Part shown: positions 1,794 to 54,556 of the stretch, in pieces
How the letters are laid out: each line of letters starts with the position of its first letter
Numbering within the stretch: position 1 is the first letter of the stretch
Made by a program: the position numbers and the translations under genes
IMG/VR virus record: IMGVR_UViG_3300021255_003284
Span: 44,454-108,453 of that record
Strand: one strand, 5' to 3'
DNA: 64,000 nucleotides
Source: a virus
Taxonomy: Duplodnaviria; Caudoviricetes
Notes under the pieces: generated by a model
What the model was told of the DNA's origin: nothing
Databases searched by the model: none
What the model saw: only the letters and a program-made list of their open reading frames with translations

Positions 1794-3119
1794 ATGTCGG
1801 AGAAAAGACGCGACAAAAGGGGGAGAATCTTACAGACAGGAGAACGTCAGCGCAGCGACGGTATGTATGAATATCGCTATATCGATGCGTCAGGCGTCAA
1901 GCGCAGCGTATACAGCTGGCTGCTTGTACCAAGCGACAAAGCGCCAAGCGGCAAGCGTGCCACCGAGGCGCTGCGCGATATGGAGCGGCGCATCGCGCGC
2001 GACCTCGCGGATGGGATCAATGAAAGCGCGCTCGGAAAGCAGACGCTCAACGAAGCGATCGAATCGTATTACGGCCGCCGCAGCGACATCAGGCCTGCAA
2101 CGCGCCGCACATACAGCGTGCTGTATCGCCTTTATGTGCGCGACACGATCGGCAGTAAGCCTGTGACGAAGATCTGTTTCACTGACGTACTCGGTCTGTA
2201 CACGGAAATGTTGCTCAAGCGCGGCCTGAGTAGGAGCACGGTACAATCACTCGACGCGATGATGAAGCCTGTATTCAACATGTATGTCCGCGCCGGTGCG
2301 ATCCGTTCAAACCCTCTGAACGGGGTCATGCGCGACGTGGGCCGCACGAAGGATAAGGTCGTACGCCATCGTAATGCGCTGACCAAAGACCAGCAGGACA
2401 CACTTCTGAACTACTGCGTACACAGCAAGGTATTCGCATCAAGCCTTCCGATGATCATATTCTTGCTCGGTACCGGATGCAGATATGGCGAAGCTACCGC
2501 ACTGACATGGGACGACTGTGACTTTGACACCGGATCCATCAGGATCCACCGCACGCTGTCGTATCTTCCAGATGAAAACGGTCGTTGCAAGTGGATGCTC
2601 GGACCGACAAAGACTGCTCACAGTACGCGAGTTATCCCAATGATCGAAGATGTCAAGCGGGTGCTCCTCGATATAAAGGCGTCGCAAGAACTTAGCGGAA
2701 AGCGTGGTGCCGAGGTCGACGGTGTGATGAACTTCGTATTTCTGAACAGCAATGGCAATAACCCATTGCAAAGCTGTTTTGATATGACATTGAAGAGCAT
2801 CTGCGATTCATACAACCGAATCGAAACGACACTCGCCGCCGAACAGCATCGCCAGCCGAATCTGCTTCCACGCATATCGGCACACATCTTCCGACATACG
2901 TTCTGCGTCAGACTGTGCGAGAACGGCGTTGACATCAAGATTGTTCAGGAGCTGATGGGGCATGCCAGTATCGGCGTCACGATGGATATCTACAATGAAG
3001 CCACGCTTGAACGCAAGCAATCCAGCCTCGTCTCGGTCGGCGACAAGCTCAACCTCAACATCGGCCTTGCATCGCAACATACCCACTTTTCTACCACTTC
3101 AGACCGCGAAGTTACGTGA
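1794..3119 (+). CDS. int: Tn916-family tyrosine integrase with N-terminal arm-binding domain
   Basis: N-terminal MSEKRRDKRGRILQTGERQRSDG; catalytic TGCRYGE, TKT, HIFRHTF, LMGHASIGVTMDIY. Confidence 0.95.
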   Translation: MSEKRRDKRGRILQTGERQRSDGMYEYRYIDASGVKRSVYSWLLVPSDKAPSGKRATEALRDMERRIARDLADGINESALGKQTLNEAIESYYGRRSDIRPATRRTYSVLYRLYVRDTIGSKPVTKICFTDVLGLYTEMLLKRGLSRSTVQSLDAMMKPVFNMYVRAGAIRSNPLNGVMRDVGRTKDKVVRHRNALTKDQQDTLLNYCVHSKVFASSLPMIIFLLGTGCRYGEATALTWDDCDFDTGSIRIHRTLSYLPDENGRCKWMLGPTKTAHSTRVIPMIEDVKRVLLDIKASQELSGKRGAEVDGVMNFVFLNSNGNNPLQSCFDMTLKSICDSYNRIETTLAAEQHRQPNLLPRISAHIFRHTFCVRLCENGVDIKIVQELMGHASIGVTMDIYNEATLERKQSSLVSVGDKLNLNIGLASQHTHFSTTSDREVT

Positions 3120-3308
3120 ACTTATGAGAACTTATGAGAGGTTCCCCGCCGACACAACGTCCGCAATACAGCCAAAGTGCCCGTATCACGGACATTTTCT
3201 ACTCGATACTGGGTTAAATATGTTTTAATACCCACCCTCGCCAAACCTCCCACACCACGGACGATTCGCGCTACCAGCATCTGTTTCTACCACTTTTTTA
3301 CCACTTTT
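3080..3308. other. Putative attP region
   Basis: Arm-like TTTCTACCACTT at 3088-3099 and 3284-3295, each with a tandem degenerate copy; three 10-bp GAACTTATGA-like repeats at 3108-3137; lies between int and the convergent late operon. Confidence 0.65.
3174..3198. promoter_or_regulatory. 25-bp palindrome, copy 1 (AAAGTGCCCGT-ATC-ACGGACATTTT)
   Basis: 11-3-11 inverted repeat similar to copies at 49917, 61415 and 62292. Confidence 0.55.
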
Positions 3309-3413
3309 GCTTATAAGGCCGCCGCGATATGCACCACTCGGCAGTCATTTCATATAGATGCCGGACAAAGATCCGGCTTACATCCATTCCTCAAACCAGA
3401 TTGCAATGAACGG

Positions 3414-3442
3414 AAAAAACAAGCCGGCATCACGCCAGCTTG
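3414..3442 (-). terminator. Intrinsic terminator ending the late operon
   Basis: Minus strand caagctggc-gtgat-gccggcttg followed by T6. Confidence 0.75.
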
Positions 3443-3475
3443 CTATATTTTTATTTGATACTATCGAAACATATT

Positions 3476-4495
3476 CTATACCGCCTCGATGTCCCCGACC
3501 TTTACAGCGGCCATCAGTTTGAACTTCCCATCTTCGCTCTCGCCAAGCGTTACCTTATCATCGTCAACAGAATATATCCGCCACGTCTTTCCAAGGACCC
3601 ACGGCTGGATGCTGACGCCCGAGTAATATGCCGTACCTGTAATACGCACGACCCGACCGGCAGAAATCACACCATCGTCAGAGGCGCTGCGTTCATCGTC
3701 GATCATGCCGAGCTCTCGCATCATGGCCATGTGCGTCTTTGCCCCATATTCGCCATCCGGGACTAATCCAGAGCGGGTCTGAAACGCTGCGACAAGCCTC
3801 ATGATCTTTGGTGTGCATTCCACGCTATCACGTTTGGGACTCAGGCCAACCTTTGACAGGGCGAGGCATAGTTGCAGCACATCGTCCCCGGTCGTGCCCT
3901 CCGTCAGTGTGCGTGTGCCGAGCGTCGTGAACGGACTGCATTCGAGACAGGCCGGCGCGTCTGTCGTTTCACCGTAGTCGACCCACGGCAAATCCATCCA
4001 TTCCCGCCACGCCCCGTCTATAACGCGCGACTTTGCGCATCCGCCTTTATCTCTACTCCAGTAGACGATATGTCCGCCACCAACATATACGCCGATGAGC
4101 TTGTCATTAAGCAGCGCCACTCCCGGCCTCTCTGGCAGGGTGTCGATCGGCATAGGGCACACACCGTATCTTTCCGCGCACAGTATCCTAAAAGCCGCGA
4201 GTGAAACATCCATCAAGCCATGCAATCCTGGAACCGCGTCGTGCGCCCCAAGGTCGGTCCACACAGCGCCCTTGATCGCGCCAATCGAATCGGAGCAGAT
4301 TTGCCCCTCAATGATGTCCTTCTGCGCGTATTTACAAAACTTATCCGCATAAAAAGCACAATACGCGGCCTTAAGCTTATCCAGTAGTTGGGCAGTGCAT
4401 CGGAAACATGAGGTGGCGTACCAGAACGGACGATGGAGCGCGGCCTGTTTGTTTAGCCACTCTGTGTATGCCGGGGCTGTAAAAATCTTTTTCAC
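3476..4495 (-). CDS. Degenerate NlpC/P60-like domain plus peptidoglycan-binding domain; endolysin paralog
   Basis: Colinear with the C-terminal part of 12214..13779 but has CSDSIG and LIGVYVGGG; PG-binding LGTRTL..G..GDDV...FQ...GL.PDG.YG; GTG start 4495 after GGGAG. Confidence 0.75.
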   Translation of the reverse strand: MKKIFTAPAYTEWLNKQAALHRPFWYATSCFRCTAQLLDKLKAAYCAFYADKFCKYAQKDIIEGQICSDSIGAIKGAVWTDLGAHDAVPGLHGLMDVSLAAFRILCAERYGVCPMPIDTLPERPGVALLNDKLIGVYVGGGHIVYWSRDKGGCAKSRVIDGAWREWMDLPWVDYGETTDAPACLECSPFTTLGTRTLTEGTTGDDVLQLCLALSKVGLSPKRDSVECTPKIMRLVAAFQTRSGLVPDGEYGAKTHMAMMRELGMIDDERSASDDGVISAGRVVRITGTAYYSGVSIQPWVLGKTWRIYSVDDDKVTLGESEDGKFKLMAAVKVGDIEAV

Positions 4496-4531: not shown

Positions 4532-5020
4532 TTAAGAGATTTCATCGGTCAATACGACCTGTTCCACATCTTCGCCTGTCCACTCGCCGGAGTGCGCACT
4601 GGTGAACCTGTACAGTATGCTGTCAAACATGACATAGTTGCCGGCCGAATACGACGCAGAAGAGTCGAACTCCCTCGCCAGCGCGCCGCGGATGTCGGCA
4701 AGGCTCCCTGCCGCAAAAGACATGAACATATTGAGCGTGTTCAGCTCATTCCTGACGTATGCGAACGAATCGATTATATCGCGCGTAATGACAGCCGCTT
4801 CAACATCGTTCTCGTCCCAATCGCCGCTGTGATCGTTTTCAAAGCGATACAGCACTCCCTCGTACCACACATGATCGTCCGTCTTGTATTCTGTGTCTTC
4901 GTCAAACTGTCCAGCGATGGCGTCAACGACGCCGGCTGGCACGTCGCCTCCTCCGCCGCCGACGACATAAGTGTTTTTCAACGCCGAAGACTTGACCTGT
5001 TTCAAATTGACCTTTGCCAT
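4532..5020 (-). CDS. Protein with two CBM5/12-like aromatic repeats
   Basis: QFDEDTEYKTDDHVWYEGVLYRFENDHSGDW and EFDSSASYSAGNYVMFDSILYRFTSAHSGEW. Confidence 0.65.
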   Translation of the reverse strand: MAKVNLKQVKSSALKNTYVVGGGGGDVPAGVVDAIAGQFDEDTEYKTDDHVWYEGVLYRFENDHSGDWDENDVEAAVITRDIIDSFAYVRNELNTLNMFMSFAAGSLADIRGALAREFDSSASYSAGNYVMFDSILYRFTSAHSGEWTGEDVEQVVLTDEIS

Positions 5021-5094
5021 CTAACCACCATCCTTCTATACAATATAATTATCTCATTGCTGAGTGAAATATCTGTTTTTATAAGCTGCAAAAT

Positions 5095-5124
5095 GCCGGT
5101 CCCGGCAATAACACCGGGGCCGGC
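5095..5124 (-). terminator. Hairpin, probable terminator after the holin
   Basis: gccggtcccgg...ccggggccggc stem followed by ATTTT on the minus strand. Confidence 0.5.
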
Positions 5125-5164
5125 GCGTCTTAATGTAATAAAGCCCGGCGCAGCCGGACTGTCC

Positions 5165-5392
5165 TTATTCTTCCGTTACTTCTGCGGGCGTTTCCGTATA
5201 TCCGACGTTCGCCGAGTCAACCAGCCCTTCGCCGATGATATACGCCATGGCCGCCGCACCAGCCATGATGATCGCAGTTACCTGAACCGCCGTTTCCTGT
5301 GAACCGTTGAATGCCAGCACGAGGTTCGTCACCAGCGCGCAGATCGCGGCCCAAAATTTTCTGCTTGTTAGTTTTCTCTTCCAATCGATCAT
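5165..5392 (-). CDS. Holin (SRKFW type)
   Basis: MIDWKRKLTSRKFW, two hydrophobic segments, YIIGEGLVD; GGGAGG RBS. Confidence 0.75.
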   Translation of the reverse strand: MIDWKRKLTSRKFWAAICALVTNLVLAFNGSQETAVQVTAIIMAGAAAMAYIIGEGLVDSANVGYTETPAEVTEE

Positions 5393-5419
5393 GTTTGCGC
5401 CTCCCGACAATTCTTAGTA

Positions 5420-5743
5420 TCACCGGCGATCCCAATAAGGATCGATATACTCCGCGGGATAATGGCCGGAATACCTGTCTTCGGGATAACCGCGGCTGAT
5501 GAGTCGACCCATCATGGGACCGCGATACCGCGCGCCAGACATATTGCCGCCGCGTTCCTCACTGTCTTCAGCGCCGACCATCGCGTAATAAGTCTCGGCG
5601 CTCTTCAAGGCGTGAAACAGCGTCCTGACGCGTTCGGCGTCCTGCGAAGTCATTTCCTCTTCGTTAGCGTACTTCTTATTGAGCTTATCCAGCTCCTTGC
5701 ACATGACGTGCTCAAGATTCTCAAAGCGCTTATGTTCTGCCAT
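5420..5743 (-). CDS. Hypothetical protein, late cassette
   Basis: GAGGAGGAG RBS; helical N-terminus and R/G/Y-rich tail. Confidence 0.75.
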   Translation of the reverse strand: MAEHKRFENLEHVMCKELDKLNKKYANEEEMTSQDAERVRTLFHALKSAETYYAMVGAEDSEERGGNMSGARYRGPMMGRLISRGYPEDRYSGHYPAEYIDPYWDRR

Positions 5744-5760
5744 TCCGAACTCCTCCTCTC

Positions 5761-6216
5761 TTACGCAATTCTGGTCACAGTCAGATTCGCGTTCTGAACG
5801 TTAATCGCTGTGGCGGCAGTTGCCGGCGTCGCGCCGAACGAAGCATTCTCAACAGAAATGTTGAAGCAGCAACCGCGAGGGATAGTAATGATAGCCGTGC
5901 TCGTCACGTTGAAGTACTCATCAACGGCCGCCGGCGTGACGATTGCCCTGCTGGTCTGGATCTGTTCCCCGTCCAGGGCAAGAGAAACAGCGATCGGGCC
6001 GGTAGTCCCATCGGTCGGCACCGCAATGTTCGCATTGAAAGTCACCTGATACCGCGCGAAACTCCCGCACGCGTTGTTTACGATACCGCGAAGAGTAAGA
6101 ATGCCTGACCCATCCCTGTGGTATACATAACCACGATTGCAGGGGATGGAGTTCTGCAATAATACGTTCTGGTTCGGCTGAACGAGCTGAACCGGATTGT
6201 ATACATACTCAGCCAT
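5761..6216 (-). CDS. Beta-sandwich protein, BclA C-terminal/C1q-like (putative)
   Basis: All-beta pattern HRDGSGILTLRG, YQVTFNANIA, NANLTVTRIA. Confidence 0.6.
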   Translation of the reverse strand: MAEYVYNPVQLVQPNQNVLLQNSIPCNRGYVYHRDGSGILTLRGIVNNACGSFARYQVTFNANIAVPTDGTTGPIAVSLALDGEQIQTSRAIVTPAAVDEYFNVTSTAIITIPRGCCFNISVENASFGATPATAATAINVQNANLTVTRIA

Positions 6217-6228
6217 TATCGCACCACC

Positions 6229-6987
6229 TTACTGACCGCAGCCACAGCCGCCATACGGCTGGCAGCAATTCGGATTCTGCACGATATACGCGGGACGCGG
6301 AGTCGGAAGCACGTACTGCTCGACCTCGTTGGCCAGAGCGCGCTGACCGGCCTGGATCGCGGCGGTCTGGACGTCCTGAGAAGCCTGGCCGCGGGCATAC
6401 ATCAGCTCAGAACGCAGCTGCGCGATGATGTCATTCTTCTGCTCGATCTTGTCGTTGCACAGCTGATCCTTGATGGACTGGAACCCGTTGTTCATAGCCG
6501 TCATGATGTTGTTCGCATTCTGGGCGTCGGCCGTACGAGTGGCACAGGCTTCGGTCGCAAGGGCGAACTTGGTGTCAGCGGTCGCGGCGCGGTTGTCGCA
6601 GCAGCACTGCGCCATCTGGCTCTGCAGTGCGAACATCTGCTGCATGTCCGCCATCTGACGGGCGTTGGCAGCGATCTCGGCCTGAGAGAAACCGTTGGAA
6701 ACGCCAGCGAAGCCATTGCACATGGCGGTCTGCACATTACCGAAGCCGTTCGTCACAGCATTCTGCACACCGTTGATGCCATTCATGACCGCGTTCTGGT
6801 CGAAACCGCGCTGCACGTCGTTGTTGGTGTTCATGCCGCCGTTCATGCCGCCCCAACCGTTGTTGAAGCACAGCAGGAGCAGAATGATCCACCAACCGTC
6901 GTTGCCGAAGAAACCATTGCCACCGTAATTGCCGTTACCGTAGGCGGGAGCGACGGGCATGTACATCGGGGTCGTGTTCTCAGTCAT
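6229..6987 (-). CDS. Hypothetical G/N/Q-rich coiled-coil protein with a CCC motif
   Basis: GN-rich N-terminus, WWIILLLL, VQRGFD, AQCCCD, C-terminal PNCC..GGCGCG; AAAGGA RBS. Confidence 0.8.
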   Translation of the reverse strand: MTENTTPMYMPVAPAYGNGNYGGNGFFGNDGWWIILLLLCFNNGWGGMNGGMNTNNDVQRGFDQNAVMNGINGVQNAVTNGFGNVQTAMCNGFAGVSNGFSQAEIAANARQMADMQQMFALQSQMAQCCCDNRAATADTKFALATEACATRTADAQNANNIMTAMNNGFQSIKDQLCNDKIEQKNDIIAQLRSELMYARGQASQDVQTAAIQAGQRALANEVEQYVLPTPRPAYIVQNPNCCQPYGGCGCGQ

Positions 6988-43993: not shown

Positions 43994-45749
43994 TGTGTCC
44001 GATCAACCCCCTTTCCGTATAAGATGGCGGCTTGATAACAAACATGCTCTGTGAATCGGCGTTCATATTCAAACGCTTACTCATCTTCGTTTCAAGCTGC
44101 GTGGCCACATAATAATTGTAGGACAGGCTCGAATATCTGTCCTTGCGCATGCCGCTGCGCTCATACAGGCGGACGCGGCCACTCGACTCTTCGTGCTGGA
44201 GTTTCACCATTTCGTCGATCAACAACGTCGTATGTATGTAGGGCAGTTGGAACAAAACGCGTTCAGAGGCGTCGAGCGCCGCATATCCCTTAATGGACGC
44301 GAGCTCTTCCTCTGCGTCGTATTCGTTCATCAAAAGCCTTATCCGTCCGCTGCGGAAACCCTCGCGCAGCAGGAAGGCGCAGTCAGAGTTGAACTGCGCG
44401 TTGGCCTTGATCGACCAGATCGCCTTTTCTGCTCCAGGCACAGTACATCTGTCCGCCATTGTTTTGTCGTTATAGCACGACAGGGCAGGATAGATGTCGC
44501 CGGTATCGGGATCGACGATGTCGTGAGCGAGCGTGTCAAAAACTCCAAGACCCACGCCGTTTGCATCGAGTACGATATAATCGCACTTAAATTCGTCGTA
44601 AAGTCTTCTGATCATCAACGCCTGGTCGTCTGTCCGGAGTCCCTCGCAGGCGTCAGCGTATACGATATTACTCGTATACCGTCCGGCCTTCGATGGAAGC
44701 ATCTGATTGATGAATATGGCCGTCGCGTCGTTGTTGTTCTTCTTGCTCGACATCAACGCGATATCGGCTGACAGGATCCGCAACTCATTGCGCTGCTTTG
44801 GCTGTATACGTATCTGAGATGCGTTACCAAGCCTTGAACAGATCTGATCCGGCATCATCGGATATTTGATGTGTCGAGTCCGCGATATCGAATCAAAATC
44901 AAAAAACGAGTCGCTCGACGACCCGTAGAACAGGGCTTCCATTTCCATACTGAATTTGATATCGGAAAACCCAGCCTCCGACATTTCATCCTGCACAGCT
45001 TCGGGATCGAGAAGCCCTTCCTTGATCGAAAGCTGATAAGGGAAGCTGCACACAAACTGGTGTCTGTTCGGATCAACCATCGCTCTGAACGTGTCGACAC
45101 ACTTTTCATAACTCCAATGATCTGTGTAATAAGCCGAACTCAAATACAGTGTCAGATTCTTCTCTTTGTCGTACTCAAGTTTTCTTTCCTCCTCAGACAA
45201 CGCGCTATAGCGCGGCATCCGGCGGAGGGTCAGGAACTTGCGAAGCACGGTATCGATGGTGTCTTTGGATATCAGCCGATACTCATCCAGCAGCAGCACA
45301 TGACACCTGTTGCCTCGCGCGTTGTCGTTCGCGGTGACAACTTTGATCATACTGCTGTCGTAGAACACGATCTGCGCGTTCGTCCCGTTCAGCTTTGTTT
45401 CCTTGTCGTTGATTTCCGCCTGAAGCTCTGGCGAACCTGGCTTCAGCTCATAAAGTATCTTTTCGAGGACATTGATAGCCTGTCCTCTCTTTCCCGACGC
45501 GATACACACATGCGTCCCCGGGTACAGAATACACCGGATCACACAGTATATCGCGCTCAGATATGTCTTGCCGAGACCTCGGCATGCGATCATAACAAAC
45601 GTCGTAGACCAGAACATCATGGCGAGCAGAATCTTCTGAAATGTCCTCAGGCGTATGTGCAAGTAGTCTTCTGCGAACTTTTCCGGATGATACCTGTAAT
45701 ACGCGCCCCACACCGCCGCGCCGTTCTGAATGGCTTCGGCTCTCGTCAC
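43956..45749 (-). CDS. terL: Terminase large subunit
   Basis: Walker A ACRGLGKT, ARGNR, Walker B LLLDE, LSSA, ILSADIA, VLDANGVG, RKDRYSS. Confidence 0.92.
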   Translation of the reverse strand: MTRAEAIQNGAAVWGAYYRYHPEKFAEDYLHIRLRTFQKILLAMMFWSTTFVMIACRGLGKTYLSAIYCVIRCILYPGTHVCIASGKRGQAINVLEKILYELKPGSPELQAEINDKETKLNGTNAQIVFYDSSMIKVVTANDNARGNRCHVLLLDEYRLISKDTIDTVLRKFLTLRRMPRYSALSEEERKLEYDKEKNLTLYLSSAYYTDHWSYEKCVDTFRAMVDPNRHQFVCSFPYQLSIKEGLLDPEAVQDEMSEAGFSDIKFSMEMEALFYGSSSDSFFDFDSISRTRHIKYPMMPDQICSRLGNASQIRIQPKQRNELRILSADIALMSSKKNNNDATAIFINQMLPSKAGRYTSNIVYADACEGLRTDDQALMIRRLYDEFKCDYIVLDANGVGLGVFDTLAHDIVDPDTGDIYPALSCYNDKTMADRCTVPGAEKAIWSIKANAQFNSDCAFLLREGFRSGRIRLLMNEYDAEEELASIKGYAALDASERVLFQLPYIHTTLLIDEMVKLQHEESSGRVRLYERSGMRKDRYSSLSYNYYVATQLETKMSKRLNMNADSQSMFVIKPPSYTERGLIGHNGGRGQPGWSNY

Positions 45750-46800: not shown

Positions 46801-47316
46801 TCAGTCACCGTCCACGACGGCGTCATCGTCTTCGTCCGCCATGTCGTCGTAATCGATTTCGATGTCTTCTCCCGAATCATCAAAATCAGCGAGCTCTCTT
46901 TCTTCCTCGTCGCTCCTGACACCCATGTCATACGTCCTCGCGCACAGCCTCAGGCGATGTCCGACATGGAACTTCGCGACATATCTCGGCAGATCTACCC
47001 GCGCGCCGTCAGGCCCGAGCAGGTGAACCACGGACCCCTTGTGTTCTTTGAGGTGCCACGAACCGAACCCTCTCAGCGAGACCGGCTCGCCGCGTCTCAA
47101 CGCGTCCTCGACGACGCGTATAAGCCCGGAGAGCACAGCGTCTATGTCATTCTTTGTCAACGCGACGGTCTTCTCACTGCCGGGCACGCTGAAGTCGACC
47201 GTATTCCCGTCATCGTCGGTAACGTGCAAGATATGACGGTCTGTTTTGACGGTCTTTCTGATGCCTCCGAGCTTGAGGTACTGTGATATCGCGCTGATCA
47301 ATCCCGATCTATTCAT
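46801..47316 (-). CDS. HU/IHF-like DNA-binding protein with an insertion and acidic tail
   Basis: MNRSGLISAI, ALRRGEPVSLRGFGSW, KFHVG; GGAAGG RBS before ATG 47316. Confidence 0.7.
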   Translation of the reverse strand: MNRSGLISAISQYLKLGGIRKTVKTDRHILHVTDDDGNTVDFSVPGSEKTVALTKNDIDAVLSGLIRVVEDALRRGEPVSLRGFGSWHLKEHKGSVVHLLGPDGARVDLPRYVAKFHVGHRLRLCARTYDMGVRSDEEERELADFDDSGEDIEIDYDDMADEDDDAVVDGD

Positions 47317-47339
47317 ATCCTTACCTTCCTTTTGCTCTA

Positions 47340-47371
47340 AAATAAAATAGAGACTGAATCTCTCCAGTCTC
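47340..47371 (-). terminator. Intrinsic terminator
   Basis: gagactg/cagtctc stem followed by TATTTTATTT on the minus strand. Confidence 0.55.
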
Positions 47372-47392
47372 ACCGATATTGTGTGGTTCAAT

Positions 47393-48334
47393 TTATGTCG
47401 TAGCGTGAAATGCAAGCTTCCAAGCTTCGTAATCTCTTATAAGCTCGGAACGAGCTTCGCGAGGTCGTCCTCCTGACGTGCTGTCTCTCCGCCGTTCGTT
47501 CTTCACGAGTATACCAGAACTATCGACAAGAAAGTCGACAGGGTAGCCGGCGACCTCTTTTTCATATGTCCTGTAAAACACCCCGGACAGCCTGAGTGAG
47601 TAATACGACATCTTGTTCTTCCAGTCTAAATGACCGGATGCTGCCAGCTTCTTCCATATCTGCGTATTGCACGCATGTGTGCTTGCGAGGCCAGACGGTG
47701 TACGAATAATCTCTTCACCCTTTACTCTCTGTGTTTTATATGGTGTGCCGTTTCTGAATATAACCAGCGAATCAAGATTCGCGCAATTCATTAACGATGG
47801 CACCGCCTCTGTATATATCGGATATTCCGAACCGGCGAGCTTATACACCATGTTGTCTATGTCGATATTGTTTTTGCTTACGAGACATATGTCAGACGTA
47901 TCGATACCGCTAAACACCATCCACAGATAGCACCTGTACACGTCGTCTATCGACCTGTCCTTCTCAGGACGGAATATGGTGTTCATATAAGTATTTAGCT
48001 CGAAAGGGCATGATATAAGTTTACTTTTTACGACCGAAGTTTTGTCAACTTCTATATCGGCAAGGTCGGACCGCGCGCCGTCGACGCCGCGTCTGACGCA
48101 CCAGTTGGCGTAATTCTTAATGATCCTTACCCTTGCAGATATGTTCTTGAATCTGAAGCCGCACAAGTTCTCTATGGCACGATTTACTTCGTCGGGCGAC
48201 TGAGAGGATACATCGCAGCCCCACTGTATTTCATAAGACTCGAGGTCGTTAAACATTATTCTAATCGCCCTTCTCATGCTCAAGCTTGTCGTCGTCTCCT
48301 GAATGAACTTTTCTTTAAGCTCGGCGTTATACAT
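47393..48334 (-). CDS. MrpR (YopR)-like tyrosine-recombinase-fold protein, probable repressor
   Basis: MYNAELKEKF, YANW, LWMVFSG, SLRLSGVFYRTY resemble SPbeta MrpR as recalled; no HxxR/H/Y catalytic set; GGAGGT RBS. Confidence 0.6.
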   Translation of the reverse strand: MYNAELKEKFIQETTTSLSMRRAIRIMFNDLESYEIQWGCDVSSQSPDEVNRAIENLCGFRFKNISARVRIIKNYANWCVRRGVDGARSDLADIEVDKTSVVKSKLISCPFELNTYMNTIFRPEKDRSIDDVYRCYLWMVFSGIDTSDICLVSKNNIDIDNMVYKLAGSEYPIYTEAVPSLMNCANLDSLVIFRNGTPYKTQRVKGEEIIRTPSGLASTHACNTQIWKKLAASGHLDWKNKMSYYSLRLSGVFYRTYEKEVAGYPVDFLVDSSGILVKNERRRDSTSGGRPREARSELIRDYEAWKLAFHATT

Positions 48335-48368
48335 GAGCACCTCCACAAAGAGTTGGATTCTATCGTTC

Positions 48369-48398
48369 ATGTTACCACGCGAAGCATCGACAAGTCAA
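48369..48398 (-). promoter_or_regulatory. Sigma-A promoter for the MrpR-like gene
   Basis: TTGACT-18 bp-TAACAT with extended TG. Confidence 0.55.
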
Positions 48399-48404
48399 CC
48401 CTGA

Positions 48405-49592
48405 TCAGAAGTTTATGTCATAACTGCATACGACACCTGTGTCATCACACACGCATACGAGCTGCTGCGGTCGTCCAATAATACGCTTCTTGATGCAGTA
48501 TTCGTCGACCCCGGAGAACGATCCGGCCATGATGACCTTGACACCCTGCACTTCATCGATCTTGTTATGGTGTTTATGCCCCATCAGGACAGCGTAAACG
48601 GGCTTCATGGTCATGGCCTTGATGTCAAGCACATTCCGTTCGCTCGGGTCGAAATCTCCGTGGACGCCACAATATGTCAGTCCGCGTATGTCGACAGAGT
48701 ATATCGTCGGGTCTATCTTCTCATAAAGGCCGAAATGGACATTGTCCAGATTCTGGAGACGCGCCCGCAAGTACCACTCCAACAGGTCGTCGAGCCGTTC
48801 CCCGCCAATCTCATCGTCTTTGTTCGGACTGATCCGGCTGTGATTACCCGCGACAGACACAAATCGGACTGATTTGAAATGGCAGCTCAACGCGGATAGG
48901 AACCAGGCAATCAGCTCAGAGACCCCGACGATCTGCTCTATGACGTTCTCTTTGTTGGAAAACCTGATATTTGCGTGGATCGCCCCACTGATCGCGTCGC
49001 CATTCTCCCAAACGACGCAGTTCTCGCTGTGGTGCCTCTCTGCAATATCAAGTATCCTGTCGACGTACTCGACCATCATCTCTTTGCATATTTCCGAATT
49101 GTATTCTCCCCAGAAGTTTTCATGGCAGGCTCCGTAATGGATGTCGTTCAGCGATATAAGCAGGTCGTTATCCGACGGCTCGATTTCTGTTCGCTCATAT
49201 TCGATCTTTGGCAAAGCGCCGCTTGACATAACGTCTCGCAGGATGTCGTAAACCTCTTCCTGCCTGGAACGCTCGCGTACAACGCGATTGAATTCGCGGC
49301 GCATATCGCTGAGCTTCCATCGTTCTTTCTGCATTTCGACGATCCTGTCATCGGTATCGTCCCGCGGCTTGACACGATCACCGCCTGCTTGGAATTCATC
49401 AAGCAACTCCAGCGTACAACGGCTGCCGTAGAACATGCGCCGCGCTACATCGCTCGCATACTGTTTGCCGTACGCAAGCTCAGCAAGTTCTGAGTAATCT
49501 ACATCAGCCAGCGTCTTGTCGACGAGCTTGCCGTATATGAGACGGCGGTGATATTCAAAATCCGTTTCGCCTGGTTTCCGTTCGACGTCCAT
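48405..49592 (-). CDS. Calcineurin-like metallophosphoesterase
   Basis: DIHYG, GDAISG, GNHSR, HGD, MGHKH motifs. Confidence 0.85.
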   Translation of the reverse strand: MDVERKPGETDFEYHRRLIYGKLVDKTLADVDYSELAELAYGKQYASDVARRMFYGSRCTLELLDEFQAGGDRVKPRDDTDDRIVEMQKERWKLSDMRREFNRVVRERSRQEEVYDILRDVMSSGALPKIEYERTEIEPSDNDLLISLNDIHYGACHENFWGEYNSEICKEMMVEYVDRILDIAERHHSENCVVWENGDAISGAIHANIRFSNKENVIEQIVGVSELIAWFLSALSCHFKSVRFVSVAGNHSRISPNKDDEIGGERLDDLLEWYLRARLQNLDNVHFGLYEKIDPTIYSVDIRGLTYCGVHGDFDPSERNVLDIKAMTMKPVYAVLMGHKHHNKIDEVQGVKVIMAGSFSGVDEYCIKKRIIGRPQQLVCVCDDTGVVCSYDINF

Positions 49593-49596
49593 TATA

Positions 49597-49794
49597 TCAC
49601 CGCCCGCCAGCAAAATGCACGTCGCCAGTCCGCAGCTCTTTCAGATACTGCATGGCACGACGGTCTTCTTCGCAATAGTACCGGTGCCGCTTCGATTTTT
49701 GCCTCATCGTCCTGACGATCGTCACGTTCGGGAACCGCTCCAGGATGGCCTCTTTTTCCGCTTTGTTGATCACTACCATTTGTTGACAGATCAT
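49597..49794 (-). CDS. Small hypothetical protein
   Basis: INKAEKEAI...KSKRHRYYCEE; AAGGA RBS. Confidence 0.6.
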   Translation of the reverse strand: MICQQMVVINKAEKEAILERFPNVTIVRTMRQKSKRHRYYCEEDRRAMQYLKELRTGDVHFAGGR

Positions 49795-49965: not shown

Positions 49966-50739
49966 TCAGAAGGCCGCGGCAAGCTGATTTCTCAAACGCA
50001 TGACGGAGTTTATGTTCTGACGCATTGCGATCTCCTGCGCGCATGTCTTGCAATACTTTTTCTTCCGGCCCTTGATCGGGTCATTGAGCTTTGTCGTCAC
50101 GCCGCAGCTCTCACACGTAAAATACGGCTCGCCGCGATACATGAGGTATTGATAACCAAGGTTCCTGTAATCGGATACGCCGACCGCCTCTTGACCGTCC
50201 TCGATAAAGCATACCCGGACATTGGTGTTGTCGACCTTCTTTGAGAACTGGATGAGGCCAAGCTCTCTTAGCGTGTGATACATCGCGCTCTGCCGCCTGA
50301 TTGACGTATTGATGTTCGCCATCCGCATGATGTCGCTGTCTTTGCTGTTGACCCAGTGATCGCCGTTCGGGTTGACAAGGTCCCAATATTTCGCGAGGCA
50401 GAGCAGCGTGAACGCAAGGCGCTGCAGCTGTCGGCCCGGAAGCGCGTTGATCCGTTCGATCTCATTCGTCGACACGCTGACGCGGTCGATCTCTATCGAG
50501 GAATATTTTGCCGCCCTGTCGACAGCGTAATCGATCGTTTCGGCCCACTTCGGAAGTGAAGCCGTCTGGTCGCACTGCAGCACGAATGTTTCTATTAGAT
50601 CGCGCGTTTTCTGCTTTGAGTAACCCTGATTGAGGTAATATTTGGCCACGCGGCACAGCGTTTCGTACGGCCTCTTGCCGAGCGAGCGCGCTTCGATCAT
50701 TTCTTTTGCCCATACCTGTTCATTCAATACAATCGTCAT
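49966..50739 (-). CDS. Hypothetical protein downstream of the RNAP, with C-terminal Zn finger
   Basis: IVLNE, RLAFTLLCLAK, CESCG...KYCKTC; GAGGTGG RBS before ATG 50739. Confidence 0.75.
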   Translation of the reverse strand: MTIVLNEQVWAKEMIEARSLGKRPYETLCRVAKYYLNQGYSKQKTRDLIETFVLQCDQTASLPKWAETIDYAVDRAAKYSSIEIDRVSVSTNEIERINALPGRQLQRLAFTLLCLAKYWDLVNPNGDHWVNSKDSDIMRMANINTSIRRQSAMYHTLRELGLIQFSKKVDNTNVRVCFIEDGQEAVGVSDYRNLGYQYLMYRGEPYFTCESCGVTTKLNDPIKGRKKKYCKTCAQEIAMRQNINSVMRLRNQLAAAF

Positions 50740-51970
50740 TATCCACCTCGATGATCCTTGAGTCGATGCTGAATCTGTTGCCGCCGTACTCGATATCGCC
50801 GTCATCATCAAGAACGGGGAACGAGATCACGTTTCCATTTTGTTTCAGGAGATTTCTGATAATGTCTGTCCCGCACATACTCCACGCGAAGCGCCTCGTC
50901 GCGTTCTTCGCGTAACATATGTCGAGGACAATATTGCACAGTGCATCCCTGTCAGGACAGATCGAGACGCACTCGCGCTGAAAGTCGTCGTTGATAATTG
51001 TCATGACTTTGAGCGCCTCGCACTCGTCGACTCGCTCCCTGTCAGAAAACATTGCGTAGCTCTTTAAGCGCTTGTTGTATTCATCGTACAGCTTCTTGAT
51101 CGCGTTGAACTGCTTTTGCGAGTATACCGCGTCACTGCGCATAATACGATAGTCGAATGGCATGTCCGTACTCGTCTTGCCGATGTACCCGTCAAACTCA
51201 CTCTCAAAACGCGCGCATATCCTGTTCATGACACACGCGTTCGTGCCGACCGGCATCTTGTGCTCGTAATATCTGAGGAAATCCTTCTGGGCATCGGTAA
51301 GCTCGCCATATGGAGTTTCTTTCATCTCGTCCACGGTCATGTCGAACTCGCGGAGCGCGTTGCGCGTGGTGTTTTTGACATAGGTGTTGTATTTCTTCAT
51401 GAGGTCTGGATAAATGTACCTCATGAAGTACGGCTTGCGGTCCGCGACGATGCTGCGATAGAACGCTTTGGTATCCTCGTCTTCAATCAGGTTGACGCTG
51501 TGCCGGTCGTGCCATGTGCGCGGCTCCGGCTTGGCGACAATACCTTTCGCTTTATCGATGGCATTCTGCTGGTAGAGCTGACTGCACTGAATCCTGTAAG
51601 TCAGCGCTTCGTACTCTTTTGACCCTTCCGCAAACCCAGCGCGCACTTCATACATGCTCGTCGCCCAATTCGTGATTTGCCCTATGTCATTGCCGAAACT
51701 CTCGATGTTCGATATAATGAAATCTTCGTCCGACGGTATCTTCTTTGCCGCCCTGCGCTGAACGCACATGAGGGCGGGAAGAGGCTGGACGTGTGATACG
51801 ATCACATCGTTGTCGGTCAGCATCACCAGATCTCCGTCGTAGTCACATCCATTCAATGCGGCCGTCGCCGTATCCCATCCGTTCATGACCGTAGCGGTTG
51901 GCATAAACCGATACCAGTATCTTGCGTCAGAACGGCGGACCGGCTTGACAAGACGGATGTTGTTGATACA
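50720..51970 (-). CDS. yonO: YonO-like single-subunit RNA polymerase, exon 2
   Basis: Begins CINNIR; catalytic NGCDYDGD; IGQITN, QQNAIDKAKG, KPYFMRYIY. Confidence 0.9.
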   Translation of the reverse strand, partial: CINNIRLVKPVRRSDARYWYRFMPTATVMNGWDTATAALNGCDYDGDLVMLTDNDVIVSHVQPLPALMCVQRRAAKKIPSDEDFIISNIESFGNDIGQITNWATSMYEVRAGFAEGSKEYEALTYRIQCSQLYQQNAIDKAKGIVAKPEPRTWHDRHSVNLIEDEDTKAFYRSIVADRKPYFMRYIYPDLMKKYNTYVKNTTRNALREFDMTVDEMKETPYGELTDAQKDFLRYYEHKMPVGTNACVMNRICARFESEFDGYIGKTSTDMPFDYRIMRSDAVYSQKQFNAIKKLYDEYNKRLKSYAMFSDRERVDECEALKVMTIINDDFQRECVSICPDRDALCNIVLDICYAKNATRRFAWSMCGTDIIRNLLKQNGNVISFPVLDDDGDIEYGGNRFSIDSRIIEVDNDDCIE

Positions 51971-53004
51971 CTTTGTGTTTCGATATATTACCCGATCGAT
52001 TATTGCCTGTTGAGTGCGTCGTCGGCGCTCCACCCGTATTTATTTACGCGAGACTTTATGGTGCCATACGGGATACCGGTCTCTCTGGACCATTCAGCTA
52101 TGGTTTGTGACCTGCCATCATGAAACAGAAGATGGTTTCGCGATGTATTATTGTTTTGCACAATGTGATCAACCCATCGGCAGTTATCTGGACAGTAATC
52201 TCCGTTCCCATCGATCCTGTCGAGTGTCAAACCCTCTCGGTATCCGTTACTGAGCGCCCACTGTATGAATACTGAAGCGTCGTGCCAGTCTGAACAAACC
52301 TTAATCCCGCGTCCGCCATATAAAGGATAAGATCTGTTGGAAATACTCTCACAACGATCCTTCATTGAATTCCATACGCCATATAGTTTACTATCAGACA
52401 TCCCGTGACGAGTCCTTCGCGCAGACGAACATTCATTTCGGTAACACCCGCAAGACTTTGTGTTACCATTGCGAAGGGATGAAAGTCTAACCGCTTTGTG
52501 GTTGCCACAATCACAAACACACTCGTACATCACTTCATGTTTGCCGGATGGTAAAACCCTATCCGCCGTCCTGTAAAGTACGGTCAGTCTTCCGAAGCGC
52601 ATATTGTCGAGAGTCAATAAGCATCACCTCCTTCCTATAACTAATAATAGCGAATGATCGGGTAATAACGGGCGCTACCCCGTATCGCGGCCTATGCCGC
52701 TCATGCTTTCGCATGAGAACAGACTATATCTTCATCCAATTCTGGATGCCCACCACTTCGACGGCGCTTGCCGTCTACTCCATAAGGATAGTCGTTGAAC
52801 CTTGCCGTATTCTGGCCTTGGCTGCTGATCGTCCATTGTTTAACACGTAGGCATTGACCTTATGTCATCCGTTATTTTCTTTCTGCTTTCGCGACCATCG
52901 CGCCTGTGCATTTCATCACTACGCTGTGGTAATAACGGCTTTAGGATATTCCAGCAATTCAGTGGGTTATGCGCGCATATTCCTATGCGCGAGACCTGAA
53001 GTCA
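51971..53004 (-). ncRNA. Group I intron (IA2-like), 1034 nt, carrying a homing endonuclease
   Basis: P1 GACU|UG-ACUU-CA-GGUC with U.G at the splice site; P 52949-52959, Q 52817-52829, R 52789-52799, S 52722-52732; P7.1/P7.2; P9 with GAAA loop; terminal G 51971; splicing restores FRAPMT-CINNIR. Confidence 0.93.
52000..52617 (-). CDS. Intron-encoded HNH-family homing endonuclease
   Basis: GRLTVL, CVCDCG, SCGC, YGGRGIKVC, TLDRIDGNGDYCPDNCRW; AAGGAGGTG RBS and TTG start. Confidence 0.85.
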   Translation of the reverse strand: MTLDNMRFGRLTVLYRTADRVLPSGKHEVMYECVCDCGNHKAVRLSSLRNGNTKSCGCYRNECSSARRTRHGMSDSKLYGVWNSMKDRCESISNRSYPLYGGRGIKVCSDWHDASVFIQWALSNGYREGLTLDRIDGNGDYCPDNCRWVDHIVQNNNTSRNHLLFHDGRSQTIAEWSRETGIPYGTIKSRVNKYGWSADDALNRQ

Positions 53005-54501
53005 AGTCATTGGAGCCCTGAAGCACGCCAGCGTCTCAGCTTCTGTGTCGGCCCAGTACCCATTATAGATCTCACCAGCCCTCAGAAGTCCCGTCTTCTC
53101 AAGACCGAACACGCTCTGCATCAGCAGGTATGGATCCCCGGATACGATGGAATAATTGCCGTGAACCTTGAGCACGCCGATCTTTGCCTCGTTGATCCTG
53201 TTGCGGATCATCTGGTATATCGTCCTCTGGATATACGGATCGTTGAGCATTCGCCTGTCGATCATGATCGCCTTGATGAAATCATCCGACCCGTCCATAA
53301 CGTTGTCCGCGCTGACGCCGTTGCCGCGAAGGAACAGGACCGTCCTCCTCCAGTCACTCTTGAGGACATCACGGATCTCGTCCATCGTCGGCTTTATCAG
53401 GGTGTCGATATCGTCGTCCTCGAGTGGCAAGCACTGAATGAACTGATAATTCGTCGTCCTGACGTTTTCAAGTTCCTCTGGACATGTCTTGGCAGCGCTA
53501 AACGTATAGCCGTGCGCGAGCGACTGCTCGATGTAATCGGCGCAGCTCGTATAGCTGTCCCACAGCTTGACCATCGATGTTGTGAGGATCAGCTCGACGT
53601 TTCGCACGTCGACATCGTCACCCCATGCATCCTTCACAATGTACTTGCCCGCAACGTTTTCGGCAAAATCAAGGAAGTCGAACGCAAAGATCATGCCTTT
53701 TGTCCAGGCCGCCCGGCAGTTCAAACCGCCGACGGTATAATCGAGACCGAGTTCCGCACTCCATCGCTCTGCCAACGACGGCAGCATGACGCCAAATCCG
53801 TCAGACGCATCGATTTTGATTCGTTGATCGTTTCGGCGCTCCATGATCGGCTCGCCGTCATTCTCGTCTGTCAGGTAGATGATGTCAGACGTGAACTCCG
53901 TCTCAGCGTCGTTGACGATCAGAACGCCATGCGGCAGCGAGAGCGGCGTTGACGCGCTGCACGTCAACGCCTTGTACGCCTCAAGCTTCGCCACGACAAG
54001 CTCTTTGTTCCTGTCGCGACCGTTCTCTATCCTGTCGGATAGCTCGCCATAAAGCCGCTCGCTCACAAATACGATCGTCGAATTTTTGATACCCCCGTTT
54101 GTGCCGAGAAGCCGTTTGTATTTGACACCGTTTATTTTGAAACCCCGGCACGCTCTGATATAGTCCTTTTCCTTATCGATTATAAGACACATATAATCCG
54201 GCTTGAATTGGAGATTATCAAGCTCGCTGTATAACCGTCTTATCTCATATTTGCTCTGCGCCGTTATAGGTTCCTCTCGGATCGTCCGTATCTGCCGCTT
54301 GATTTCCCGGGCTTTGGCATCGGCGTCCGTCACCCCGTTCAGCTCATCGATCCAGCGCAGGATCTGGCTGTCAGCGATGGATATGATCTCGTCATTGCGG
54401 CGCGCCTCGTCGAGAGGAAGTGTGAGCTTCCACTTCTCCTTGCGGAGCCGAGACGAGTGGATTTTGAGGATGAATTTCTGACATACTAACTGTTTGCTGA
54501 T
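53005..54501 (-). CDS. yonO: YonO-like RNA polymerase, exon 1 (probable ATC start at 54501)
   Basis: KLEAYKAL..S, SDGFG, RAAWTKG, SMVKLW, NYQFIQ, SGDPY, FRAP; frame is open to 54507 behind an AGGGGTG RBS. Confidence 0.88.
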
Positions 54502-54556
54502 TACGTTTCACCCCTGTCGAAAGACATTGGATTTAGCGTGACTGAACAAAAAAATA

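Follow-up and report, generated by a model that had tools for sequence, protein, structure and literature searches.

A group I intron of IA architecture, very probably mobile, interrupts the gene for a YonO-type RNA polymerase in a phage genome

Late genes of the phage SPbeta are transcribed by the RNA polymerase (RNAP) YonO, for which an Asp triad is essential (PMC5467207, Forrest et al.). Phage RNAP genes are also among the places where introns of group I occur; in PhiPA3, the intron-encoded HNH endonuclease gp210 nicks the intron-less RNAP gene of a co-infecting phage, and the H82R substitution abolishes nicking (PMC11620839, Birkholz et al. 2024, Science). The introns encoding I-HmuI and I-BasI, located in the DNA polymerase genes of the Bacillus phages SPO1 and Bastille, respectively, are cited in the same paper as carrying nicking HNH enzymes (PMC11620839). 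Here, we describe a 64,000-nucleotide (nt) stretch of viral DNA (Duplodnaviria; Caudoviricetes; IMG/VR record IMGVR_UViG_3300021255_003284, positions 44,454 to 108,453), hereafter called the window, in which the gene for a YonO-type RNAP is interrupted by an insert of 1034 nt containing an open reading frame (ORF). All coordinates of the RNAP gene, the intron, and its ORF are window positions on the minus strand. Taken as a whole, the locus is best explained as a YonO-type late RNAP gene split by a mobile intron of group I with IA architecture, a reading in which we place high confidence.

Comparison with the described systems reveals both likenesses and differences. The PhiPA3 intron, like that of the window, is a group I intron bearing an HNH-type ORF in a phage two-barrel RNAP gene, beside conserved catalytic-domain codons; it resides, however, in the gene for the virion RNAP beta-subunit (gp211/gp209) of a multi-subunit jumbo-phage polymerase, whereas the polymerase of the window is of the single-chain YonO type, and gp210 has the canonical His82, at which the ORF of the window has a natural Arg. 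The I-HmuI and I-BasI introns likewise are of group I and interrupt an essential phage polymerase gene, and relatives of the window's ORF also separate the two parts of a split DNA polymerase A gene (L107:3501-4145), although the host gene is different and the similarity of the ORF to I-HmuI is marginal, extending over about 50 residues of the beta-beta-alpha-metal motif. In the nrdD (sunY) intron of phage T4, the ribozyme core comes first, the endonuclease ORF is carried in a P9 extension at the 3' end that a long-range helix closes, and an in-frame stop codon is located just inside the intron. The likeness of the window's intron to that of nrdD is architectural only, the host gene and the endonuclease family being different. 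Within the yonO family itself, phage vB_BsuS-Goe14 (OL580764.1) contains yonO_2 (2608-4485), a 300-residue hypothetical ORF, and yonO_1 (5791-6405), an interrupted yonO already deposited in GenBank without comment. Designating the intron sites as a (RAPMT/C, that of the window), b (NGC/D.DGD), and c (QQNAI/DKAKG), with the slash marking the insertion point, the same gene family is interrupted in Goe14 and in gut phages with introns at sites b and c, whereas the window's intron occupies a third site, 42 codons upstream of DYDGD. As the virion RNAP gene of PhiPA3 (PMC11620839) and the split yonO of Bacillus phages in GenBank attest, RNAP genes are not an unprecedented home for introns. The present element is of a textbook kind, a group I intron that bears an ORF of homing-endonuclease type and interrupts an essential phage gene, at a rarely used third site known so far from five assemblies only.

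The assignment of the host gene to YonO-type single-chain two-barrel RNA polymerases is supported by several searches. With YonO of Bacillus phage Goe12, BLASTP yielded a single high-scoring segment pair (residues 121-608 against 132-603, 25% identity, E 7e-24) that crosses both the exon junction and the Asp triad, in accord with the earlier note on this DNA, which had proposed a phage single-subunit RNAP akin to YonO. Exon 1 is about 27% identical to YonO of SPbeta-like phages, and tblastn matches were obtained in 24 Bacillus SPbeta-like phages (annotated yonO), phage c-st (annotated "YonO-homolog N-ter / C-ter"), and Enterocloster phages. In addition to the PHROG families given in Table 1, exon 1 matches phrog_8308, the match continuing colinearly into exon 2, and the Pfam RdRP model PF05183 at threshold (23.8 bits). 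Exon 1 indeed ends in FRAPMT followed by an in-frame TGA, its last base being 53005 and the TGA occupying 53004-53002; in the ORF listing, this part of the gene appears as a 443-codon ORF, 54333..53002 (-), ending in ...CFRAPMT-TGA. The junction, previously placed about 40 codons before DYDGD, precedes it by 42 codons. The insertion point lies within the strongly conserved segment CFRAPMT/CHNNIR, which seems to correspond to the bacterial beta' motif NRAPTLH, located ahead of NADFDGD within the catalytic double-psi barrel.

The extent of the insert is defined by an intron-less allele in a Logan contig (L005) with 95.6-96.6% nucleotide identity to the window. The alignment runs to 53005 and resumes at 51970, so that exactly 1034 nt (53004..51971) are absent from L005. 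The encoded protein (P0001, 98% identical and called as 859 amino acids) reads ...FRAPMTCINNIR... without interruption across the junction, the uninterrupted junction segment being ...CFRAPMTCINNIRLVKP..., and the flanks in the window, ...GGGCTCCAATGACT / TGTATCAACAACATCCGTCTT, differ from those in L005 at -6, -9, -12, +16, +18, and +21. An ambiguity of 2 nt (TG/TG) at the boundaries is resolved only by the group I rule that U precedes the 5' site and G precedes the 3' site. Colinearity of homologs across MT/CINNIR, the point on which the earlier note had staked its reading beforehand, was found in L005/P0001, in the Enterocloster phage PMBT24 (one tblastn segment across the junction), in YonO of Goe12, and in a DNA-level census of 80 RNAP loci in IMG/VR (L012-L091), 67 of which are uninterrupted and colinear across the junction. 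An apparent truncation of 119 of the 120 nearest homologs was dismissed as an artefact of a length filter (274-874 amino acids) that hid the full-length proteins of 905-917 amino acids.

In architecture, the insert is a group I intron of the IA type. The group I assignment made in the earlier note is borne out by an Rfam match to RF00028 (53013..52700 (-), E 6e-17, 74.1 bits where the gathering threshold is 50), which covers the full model (1-253) and is the sole Rfam match in the window, and the IA subgroup follows from a 31-nt insert between P7 and P3' that corresponds to the P7.1 and P7.2 hairpins, a hallmark of IA introns; IA2, the label given in the earlier note, is a candidate assignment within IA. 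The alignment with the model further delineates P2, P3, P4/P5 with a P5 extension of about 100 nt, P6, P8, a GAAA-capped P9, the R element GUUCAACGACUA, and the S element AAGAUAUAGUC. The P1 pairing (alignment columns 6-11 / 17-22) is retained in all three orthologs with a complete core (window, L103, and L104), and the in-frame stop codon UGA (53004-53002) constitutes the first codon of the intron. The full set of elements listed in the earlier note, that is, P1 with a U.G pair (U53005.G52996), the P/Q/R/S elements, P7.1/P7.2, P9, and a terminal G (G51971), was recovered. When the three complete cores were folded together by RNAalifold, 85 consensus pairs were obtained, 28 of them with compensatory double changes that cover P2, P3, P5/P5a, P6, P7.1, P7.2, P8, P9, and the P9.1 hairpin, a covariation of modest statistical power with only three sequences.

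Four further copies of the site-a intron (L103, L104, L011, and L105/L106) were found via relatives of the ORF. Those in L103 and L104 are complete (RF00028, 86.8 and 73.7 bits), and those in L011 and L105 are cut at the 5' side by the contig ends (42 and 45 bits for the 3' half of the model). In the copies with an intact 5' end (window, L103, and L104), TGA directly follows ATGACT, and in each of the five introns the final base is G, with a Cys codon next to it. The inverted repeat, a perfect one of 12 bp, that had been proposed to loop out the ORF was found exactly as given (51986-51997 / 52656-52667), with an estimated chance expectation of about 0.03 in about 1.07 kb. A stem of 10-12 bp is present at this position in all five site-a introns, with mutually unrelated sequences; the distance from the end of its 5' arm to the ORF start is 35-41 nt in all five, and that from the end of its 3' arm to the 3' splice site is 11-16 nt in the four copies with exon 2 mapped. 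Since unrelated sequences form the stem at the same relative position in five introns, the ORF-looping helix is real. The nearest BLAST relatives of the intron, with 70-73% identity over about 250 nt, are introns without annotation in phages of Bacillus, Enterocloster, Listeria, and Staphylococcus.

Table 1 Features of the interrupted RNAP gene and its surroundings (window positions)
Feature	Position	Strand	Remarks
Shine-Dalgarno-like GGGGTGA	54508..54514	(-)	Upstream of RNAP gene; read from sequence
Probable near-cognate start ATC	54499..54501	(-)	Aligned start codon across 78 IMG/VR loci
RNAP exon 1	54501..53005	(-)	499 codons from ATC, ends ATGACT = Met-Thr; phrog_25339, E 2e-155
Group I intron	53004..51971	(-)	1034 nt; RF00028; exactly absent in allele L005
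Ribozyme core P1-P9	53013..52700	(-)	Rfam match; RNAalifold on three site-a orthologs
P1 hairpin, GACU/UG with CAGGUC	53008-53003 / 52998-52993	(-)	6 bp; U53005.G52996 at 5' splice site
P7.1, UCC-UUAU-GGA	52788-52779	(-)	Columns 231-233/248-250, compensatory changes
P7.2, GACGGC-AAGC-GCCGUC	52775-52760	(-)	Columns 254-259/264-269, compensatory changes
ORF-looping helix, 5' arm (P9 extension)	52656..52667	(-)	Perfect 12-bp complement of 51986-51997
Intron ORF, 205 amino acids	52617..52000	(-)	TTG start, GGAGG 9 nt upstream; phrog_374 "HNH endonuclease", E 8e-68
ORF-looping helix, 3' arm	51986..51997	(-)	Begins 2 nt past ORF stop, ends 15 nt before 3' splice site
Terminal (omega) G	51971	(-)	Last base is G in all five site-a introns; exon resumes with TG(T/C)
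RNAP exon 2	51970..50720	(-)	416 codons and stop (50722-50720); 5' end TGTATC; phrog_35857, E 6e-66
Catalytic Asp triad DYDGD	51844-51830	(-)	Aligns with DNDGD of YonO; in exon 2
Three genes downstream of RNAP	46804-47415, 47396-48370, 48408-49613	(-)	Metallophosphatase-like, MrpR-type recombinase core-binding domain, HU-like

The product of 915 amino acids proposed in the earlier note is correct as a sum (499 + 416 = 915), but it is obtained only with a start at ATC 54501, a noncanonical codon. Between the in-frame stop codon at 54510-54508 and GTG 54333 there is no in-frame ATG, GTG, or TTG, and a start at GTG 54333, the first such codon, would give 859 amino acids. The 56 codons between ATC 54501 and GTG 54333 are conserved in homologs, with four synonymous changes and one non-synonymous change relative to L005. 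At the codon aligned with ATC 54501, 78 IMG/VR loci have ATA (29), ATG (25), ATT (10), CTG (9), or ATC (3), always preceded by a strong Shine-Dalgarno sequence at a distance of 5-8 nt; many of these loci are without any canonical in-frame start, and phage c-st has ATG exactly at the aligned position. The GTG chosen by gene callers lies inside the Shine-Dalgarno sequence, and neither in the window nor in L005 is it in frame. A +1 frameshift after this out-of-frame GTG (54511) was rejected as an explanation for the start and AUC initiation was preferred, because the GTG is part of the Shine-Dalgarno sequence in all relatives. The near-cognate start thus appears to be conserved in the clade, and the 915-residue product starting at 54501 is probably right in view of the clade-wide occurrence of such a start together with a conserved Shine-Dalgarno sequence.

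Because exon 1 stops at the first codon of the intron, DYDGD is encoded in exon 2, and exon 2 is devoid of its own ribosome-binding site, splicing would be logically required for an active enzyme. In the predicted sequence of events, the pre-mRNA would be made by the host polymerase, and a ribosome translating exon 1 would stop at the UGA inside the P1 loop. The ribozyme would then fold into P1 with its U.G pair, P2-P9, and P7.1/P7.2, while the 12-bp long-range helix would close off the 618-nt ORF and bring G51971 at the 3' splice site beside the core. Guanosine-initiated splicing, which we infer to proceed in vivo, would join ATGACT to TGTATC and restore ...CFRAPMT-CINNIR... ahead of DYDGD. 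As only the spliced mRNA would yield the enzyme of 915 amino acids, late transcription is predicted to be downstream of, and dependent on, splicing; the polymerase presumably carries out DNA-dependent transcription of the late operon.

Two other accounts would dispense with splicing. The halves of the gene might each be translated on their own and associate into a split polymerase, a possibility suggested by the annotation of separate YonO fragments in c-st and Goe14; split beta' subunits exist in other RNA polymerases. Nevertheless, the 5' end of exon 2 has neither a Shine-Dalgarno sequence nor a plausible start, the only in-frame start, GTG 52033, being inside the intron ORF and without a Shine-Dalgarno sequence; the break would sever the catalytic double-psi barrel between RAPMT and DYDGD; most RNAP homologs are single-chain; and the intervening RNA is a complete ribozyme kept by covariation. 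We therefore regard the split polymerase as highly improbable. Equally improbable is a dead gene, that is, a polymerase inactivated by insertion in a defective phage or a product of faulty assembly. A metagenomic record estimated to be 92% complete and a gene without a canonical start codon would be compatible with such a view, yet the same arrangement recurs in five independent assemblies, both exons are open with 85 synonymous against 11 non-synonymous differences from L005, and the near-cognate start is found throughout the clade with its Shine-Dalgarno sequence conserved.

With 5124 matches at E <= 1e-5, the family of the intron ORF is very large. The ORF also matches phrog_3377 (E 3e-53) and is intact, with 205 amino acids compared with 206-215 in its nearest relatives. 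Its family has an invariant Asp-Arg pair (DRID), an N-terminal Cys cluster (C33/C35/C56/C58), and invariant H71, Y100, and Y141. The sole sequence match in the PDB, whether the ORF was used singly or as a 64-member profile, is I-HmuI (1U3E), with a marginal E value of 0.02-0.03; in this weak alignment, D133-R134 corresponds to D74-H75 of I-HmuI, N145 to N87, and N157 to N96, and D133, N145, and N157 are invariant or at least 90% conserved among 64 homologs. The AF2 model of the ORF product (pLDDT 92.9) has a strand-strand-helix arrangement at residues 131-157. On account of the family-wide conservation and the presence in several split genes, we argue that the ORF product is likely to be functional. 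Translated from its own ribosome-binding site, it would give a beta-beta-alpha-metal protein, related to I-HmuI but non-canonical, whose most likely role is to nick or cut the intron-less alleles of co-infecting relatives, and repair from the intron-bearing copy would then spread the intron along with the adjoining exon sequence, about 90 nt to either side. For the attack on rival alleles, predicted as are nuclease activity and homing, indirect support comes from the intron-plus/intron-minus polymorphism with its tract of divergence.

Traces expected of such a process are seen in the exons. Of the 96 differences between the window and L005 at 2745 coding positions, 27 lie in the +/-100 nt around the insertion site (binomial p 7e-10); synonymous changes make up 23 of these 27 near-site substitutions. 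The cluster is a footprint of recombination centred on the insertion site. Such a tract of divergence is expected for homing with co-conversion, and loss of the intron via an intron-less relative fits it equally well. Furthermore, the same intron with its ORF (51-68% amino acid identity) is present at the same site in RNAPs that are only 57-64% identical. Horizontal movement of the intron is favoured, since a near-identical allele is intron-less and yet the same intron occurs in far more distant polymerases.

Several observations weigh against the interpretation as a mobile intron in an expressed late polymerase gene. The host gene is without a canonical start codon, which leaves its expression level uncertain, and no convincing P10 pairing was found between the internal guide region and exon 2. 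For the ORF, no Pfam or NCBIfam model gave a match, a Foldseek search of the PDB with the model returned nothing at E <= 0.001, and the best VIA-align match, the HNH restriction enzyme PacI (3M7K), is moderate (Z 6.6, rmsd 3.5, 79 residues). Arg134 is aligned with the general-base His (His75 of I-HmuI) and is invariant in 64 family members. The ORF was therefore classed as HNH-like rather than as a canonical HNH: it appears to keep the putative metal ligands and to be without the canonical general base. Of the "HNH ORF" in the earlier note, the relationship to HNH endonucleases is indicated by the PHROG match, whereas its membership in the canonical HNH class is contradicted by the invariant Arg and the silence of the Pfam and NCBIfam HNH models. 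As to mobility, the 27 variable positions in the flanks, set against four alleles with the intron and 82 with an empty site a, gave no signal for either direction of the tract (24:29 versus 740:683), and none of the 80 IMG/VR relatives has an insert at site a, which indicates that the intron has spread infrequently at best. These last points, together with the replacement of the catalytic His by Arg throughout the ORF family and the inactivation of PhiPA3 gp210 by H82R, also speak for another view, in which the intron splices but is an immobile, vertically inherited passenger, the ORF product is a DNA/RNA-binding relic or a maturase-like helper, and the intron-less allele arose through precise loss or through recombination with an intron-less relative. 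In opposition to it, the ORF family is huge, strongly conserved, intact in the window, and present in several split genes, as is usual for homing genes that are active; D133 and N157, the putative metal ligands, are retained, as is the structural N145; PacI, the best structural match, is an HNH enzyme that works without a His general base; and the same intron is found in RNAPs with 57-64% identity while an allele with 96% identity is without it. On balance, we consider the passenger view unlikely, although it deserves to be kept in mind, and prefer a mobile intron with an HNH-like endonuclease.

Introns appear to be common in the YonO gene family and yet undescribed in the literature found; no paper joining YonO and a group I intron was encountered, and the papers on PMBT24 and on SPbeta relatives mention none in this gene. 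Among published cases, the virion RNAP intron of PhiPA3 comes closest. In the IMG/VR census, inserts are present at site b or c in 13 of the 80 loci and at site a in none. Rfam-positive introns at site b range from 253 to 1063 nt, with or without an ORF (84 bits in L006/L007, with the L006 intron at 6376-6631, 85.6 in L034, and 93.5 in L055), and those at site c are represented by L056 (84.8 bits) and L063 (73.0 bits). A GIY-YIG ORF is carried by the site-c insert of L008. The RNAP gene of L103 (1519-6632) contains three inserts, at sites a (3019-4035, with an HNH-like ORF), b (4165-4458), and c (4723-5780, with a GIY-YIG ORF). With Rfam, no group I match was obtained for the inserts at sites b and c of L103, the site-c insert of L008, or the inserts of CB457P1/P2 (Enterocloster) and c-st. 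Scanning IMG/VR for the exact 5'/3' intron-exon junction pattern returned 11 loci, none of them related to the intron or the polymerase, and these were discarded as chance matches. In c-st (AP008983.1, 163800-168200; L002), the YonO homolog is annotated as three coding sequences, CST179 (N-ter), CST178, and CST177 ("C-ter"), and its alignment breaks with a change of frame near the DxDGD codons (query residues 520-546), with about 250 nt between the pieces. Three independent Logan contigs, L011, L105, and L106, have their first bases within the site-a intron, some 200 nt ahead of the ORF; these breaks may originate from intron-plus and intron-minus alleles coexisting in the samples. Elsewhere in the genome to which the window belongs, outside the window, RF00028 matches were observed at G000:C1 27394-27717(+), 38614-38894(+), and 12000-12228(+), two of them above threshold and one weak (22 bits).

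The RNAP gene is the head of a long co-oriented block that comprises metallophosphatase-like, HU-like, large terminase, and structural genes, including an ORF of 3410 amino acids. SPbeta has an HU-like protein encoded by yonN, and the HU-like gene downstream of the RNAP gene in the window echoes the yonO-yonN synteny. A gene for 281 amino acids (49966-50811), for which no family match was obtained, overlaps the RNAP stop by 92 nt. Genes of the YonV, YonJ, and YonG families are the neighbours of RNAP relatives, and four tRNA genes in a row (3464-3789) were noticed downstream of the RNAP region in L105. The IMG/VR record is 108,453 nt long and estimated to be 92% complete, and the window is best explained as part of a 108-kb SPbeta-like phage genome from a metagenome of gut or rumen type.

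A bolder reading, to which we assign only a small chance in its entirety, is that the late polymerase may be deliberately double-gated by a near-cognate start (AUC, with AUA, AUU, or CUG in relatives) and by guanosine-dependent self-splicing. In such a case, the late switch would be coupled to the translational status of the host (initiation factors and ribosome state) and to its GTP status, and the catalytic barrel, with three intron sites within about 140 codons, would be a battleground on which His-less HNH-like endonucleases serve co-infecting phages as weapons against one another.

The concepts of intron biology are left unchanged by the finding. In practical terms, this polymerase is misannotated by gene callers as two or three fragments, or as a protein of 859 amino acids from an internal GTG, and sometimes as an "RNA-dependent RNA polymerase", and surveys of the phage transcription machinery in gut viromes consequently under-count it. 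The large, uncurated family of nuclease-like proteins with an invariant Arg in place of the catalytic His merits biochemical attention. The YonO-type late polymerase joins the essential phage genes colonised by homing introns, with at least three sites clustered in its catalytic barrel, and provides a natural system for probing the intron-endonuclease competition between co-infecting temperate gut phages, as has been done for PhiPA3 and PhiKZ.

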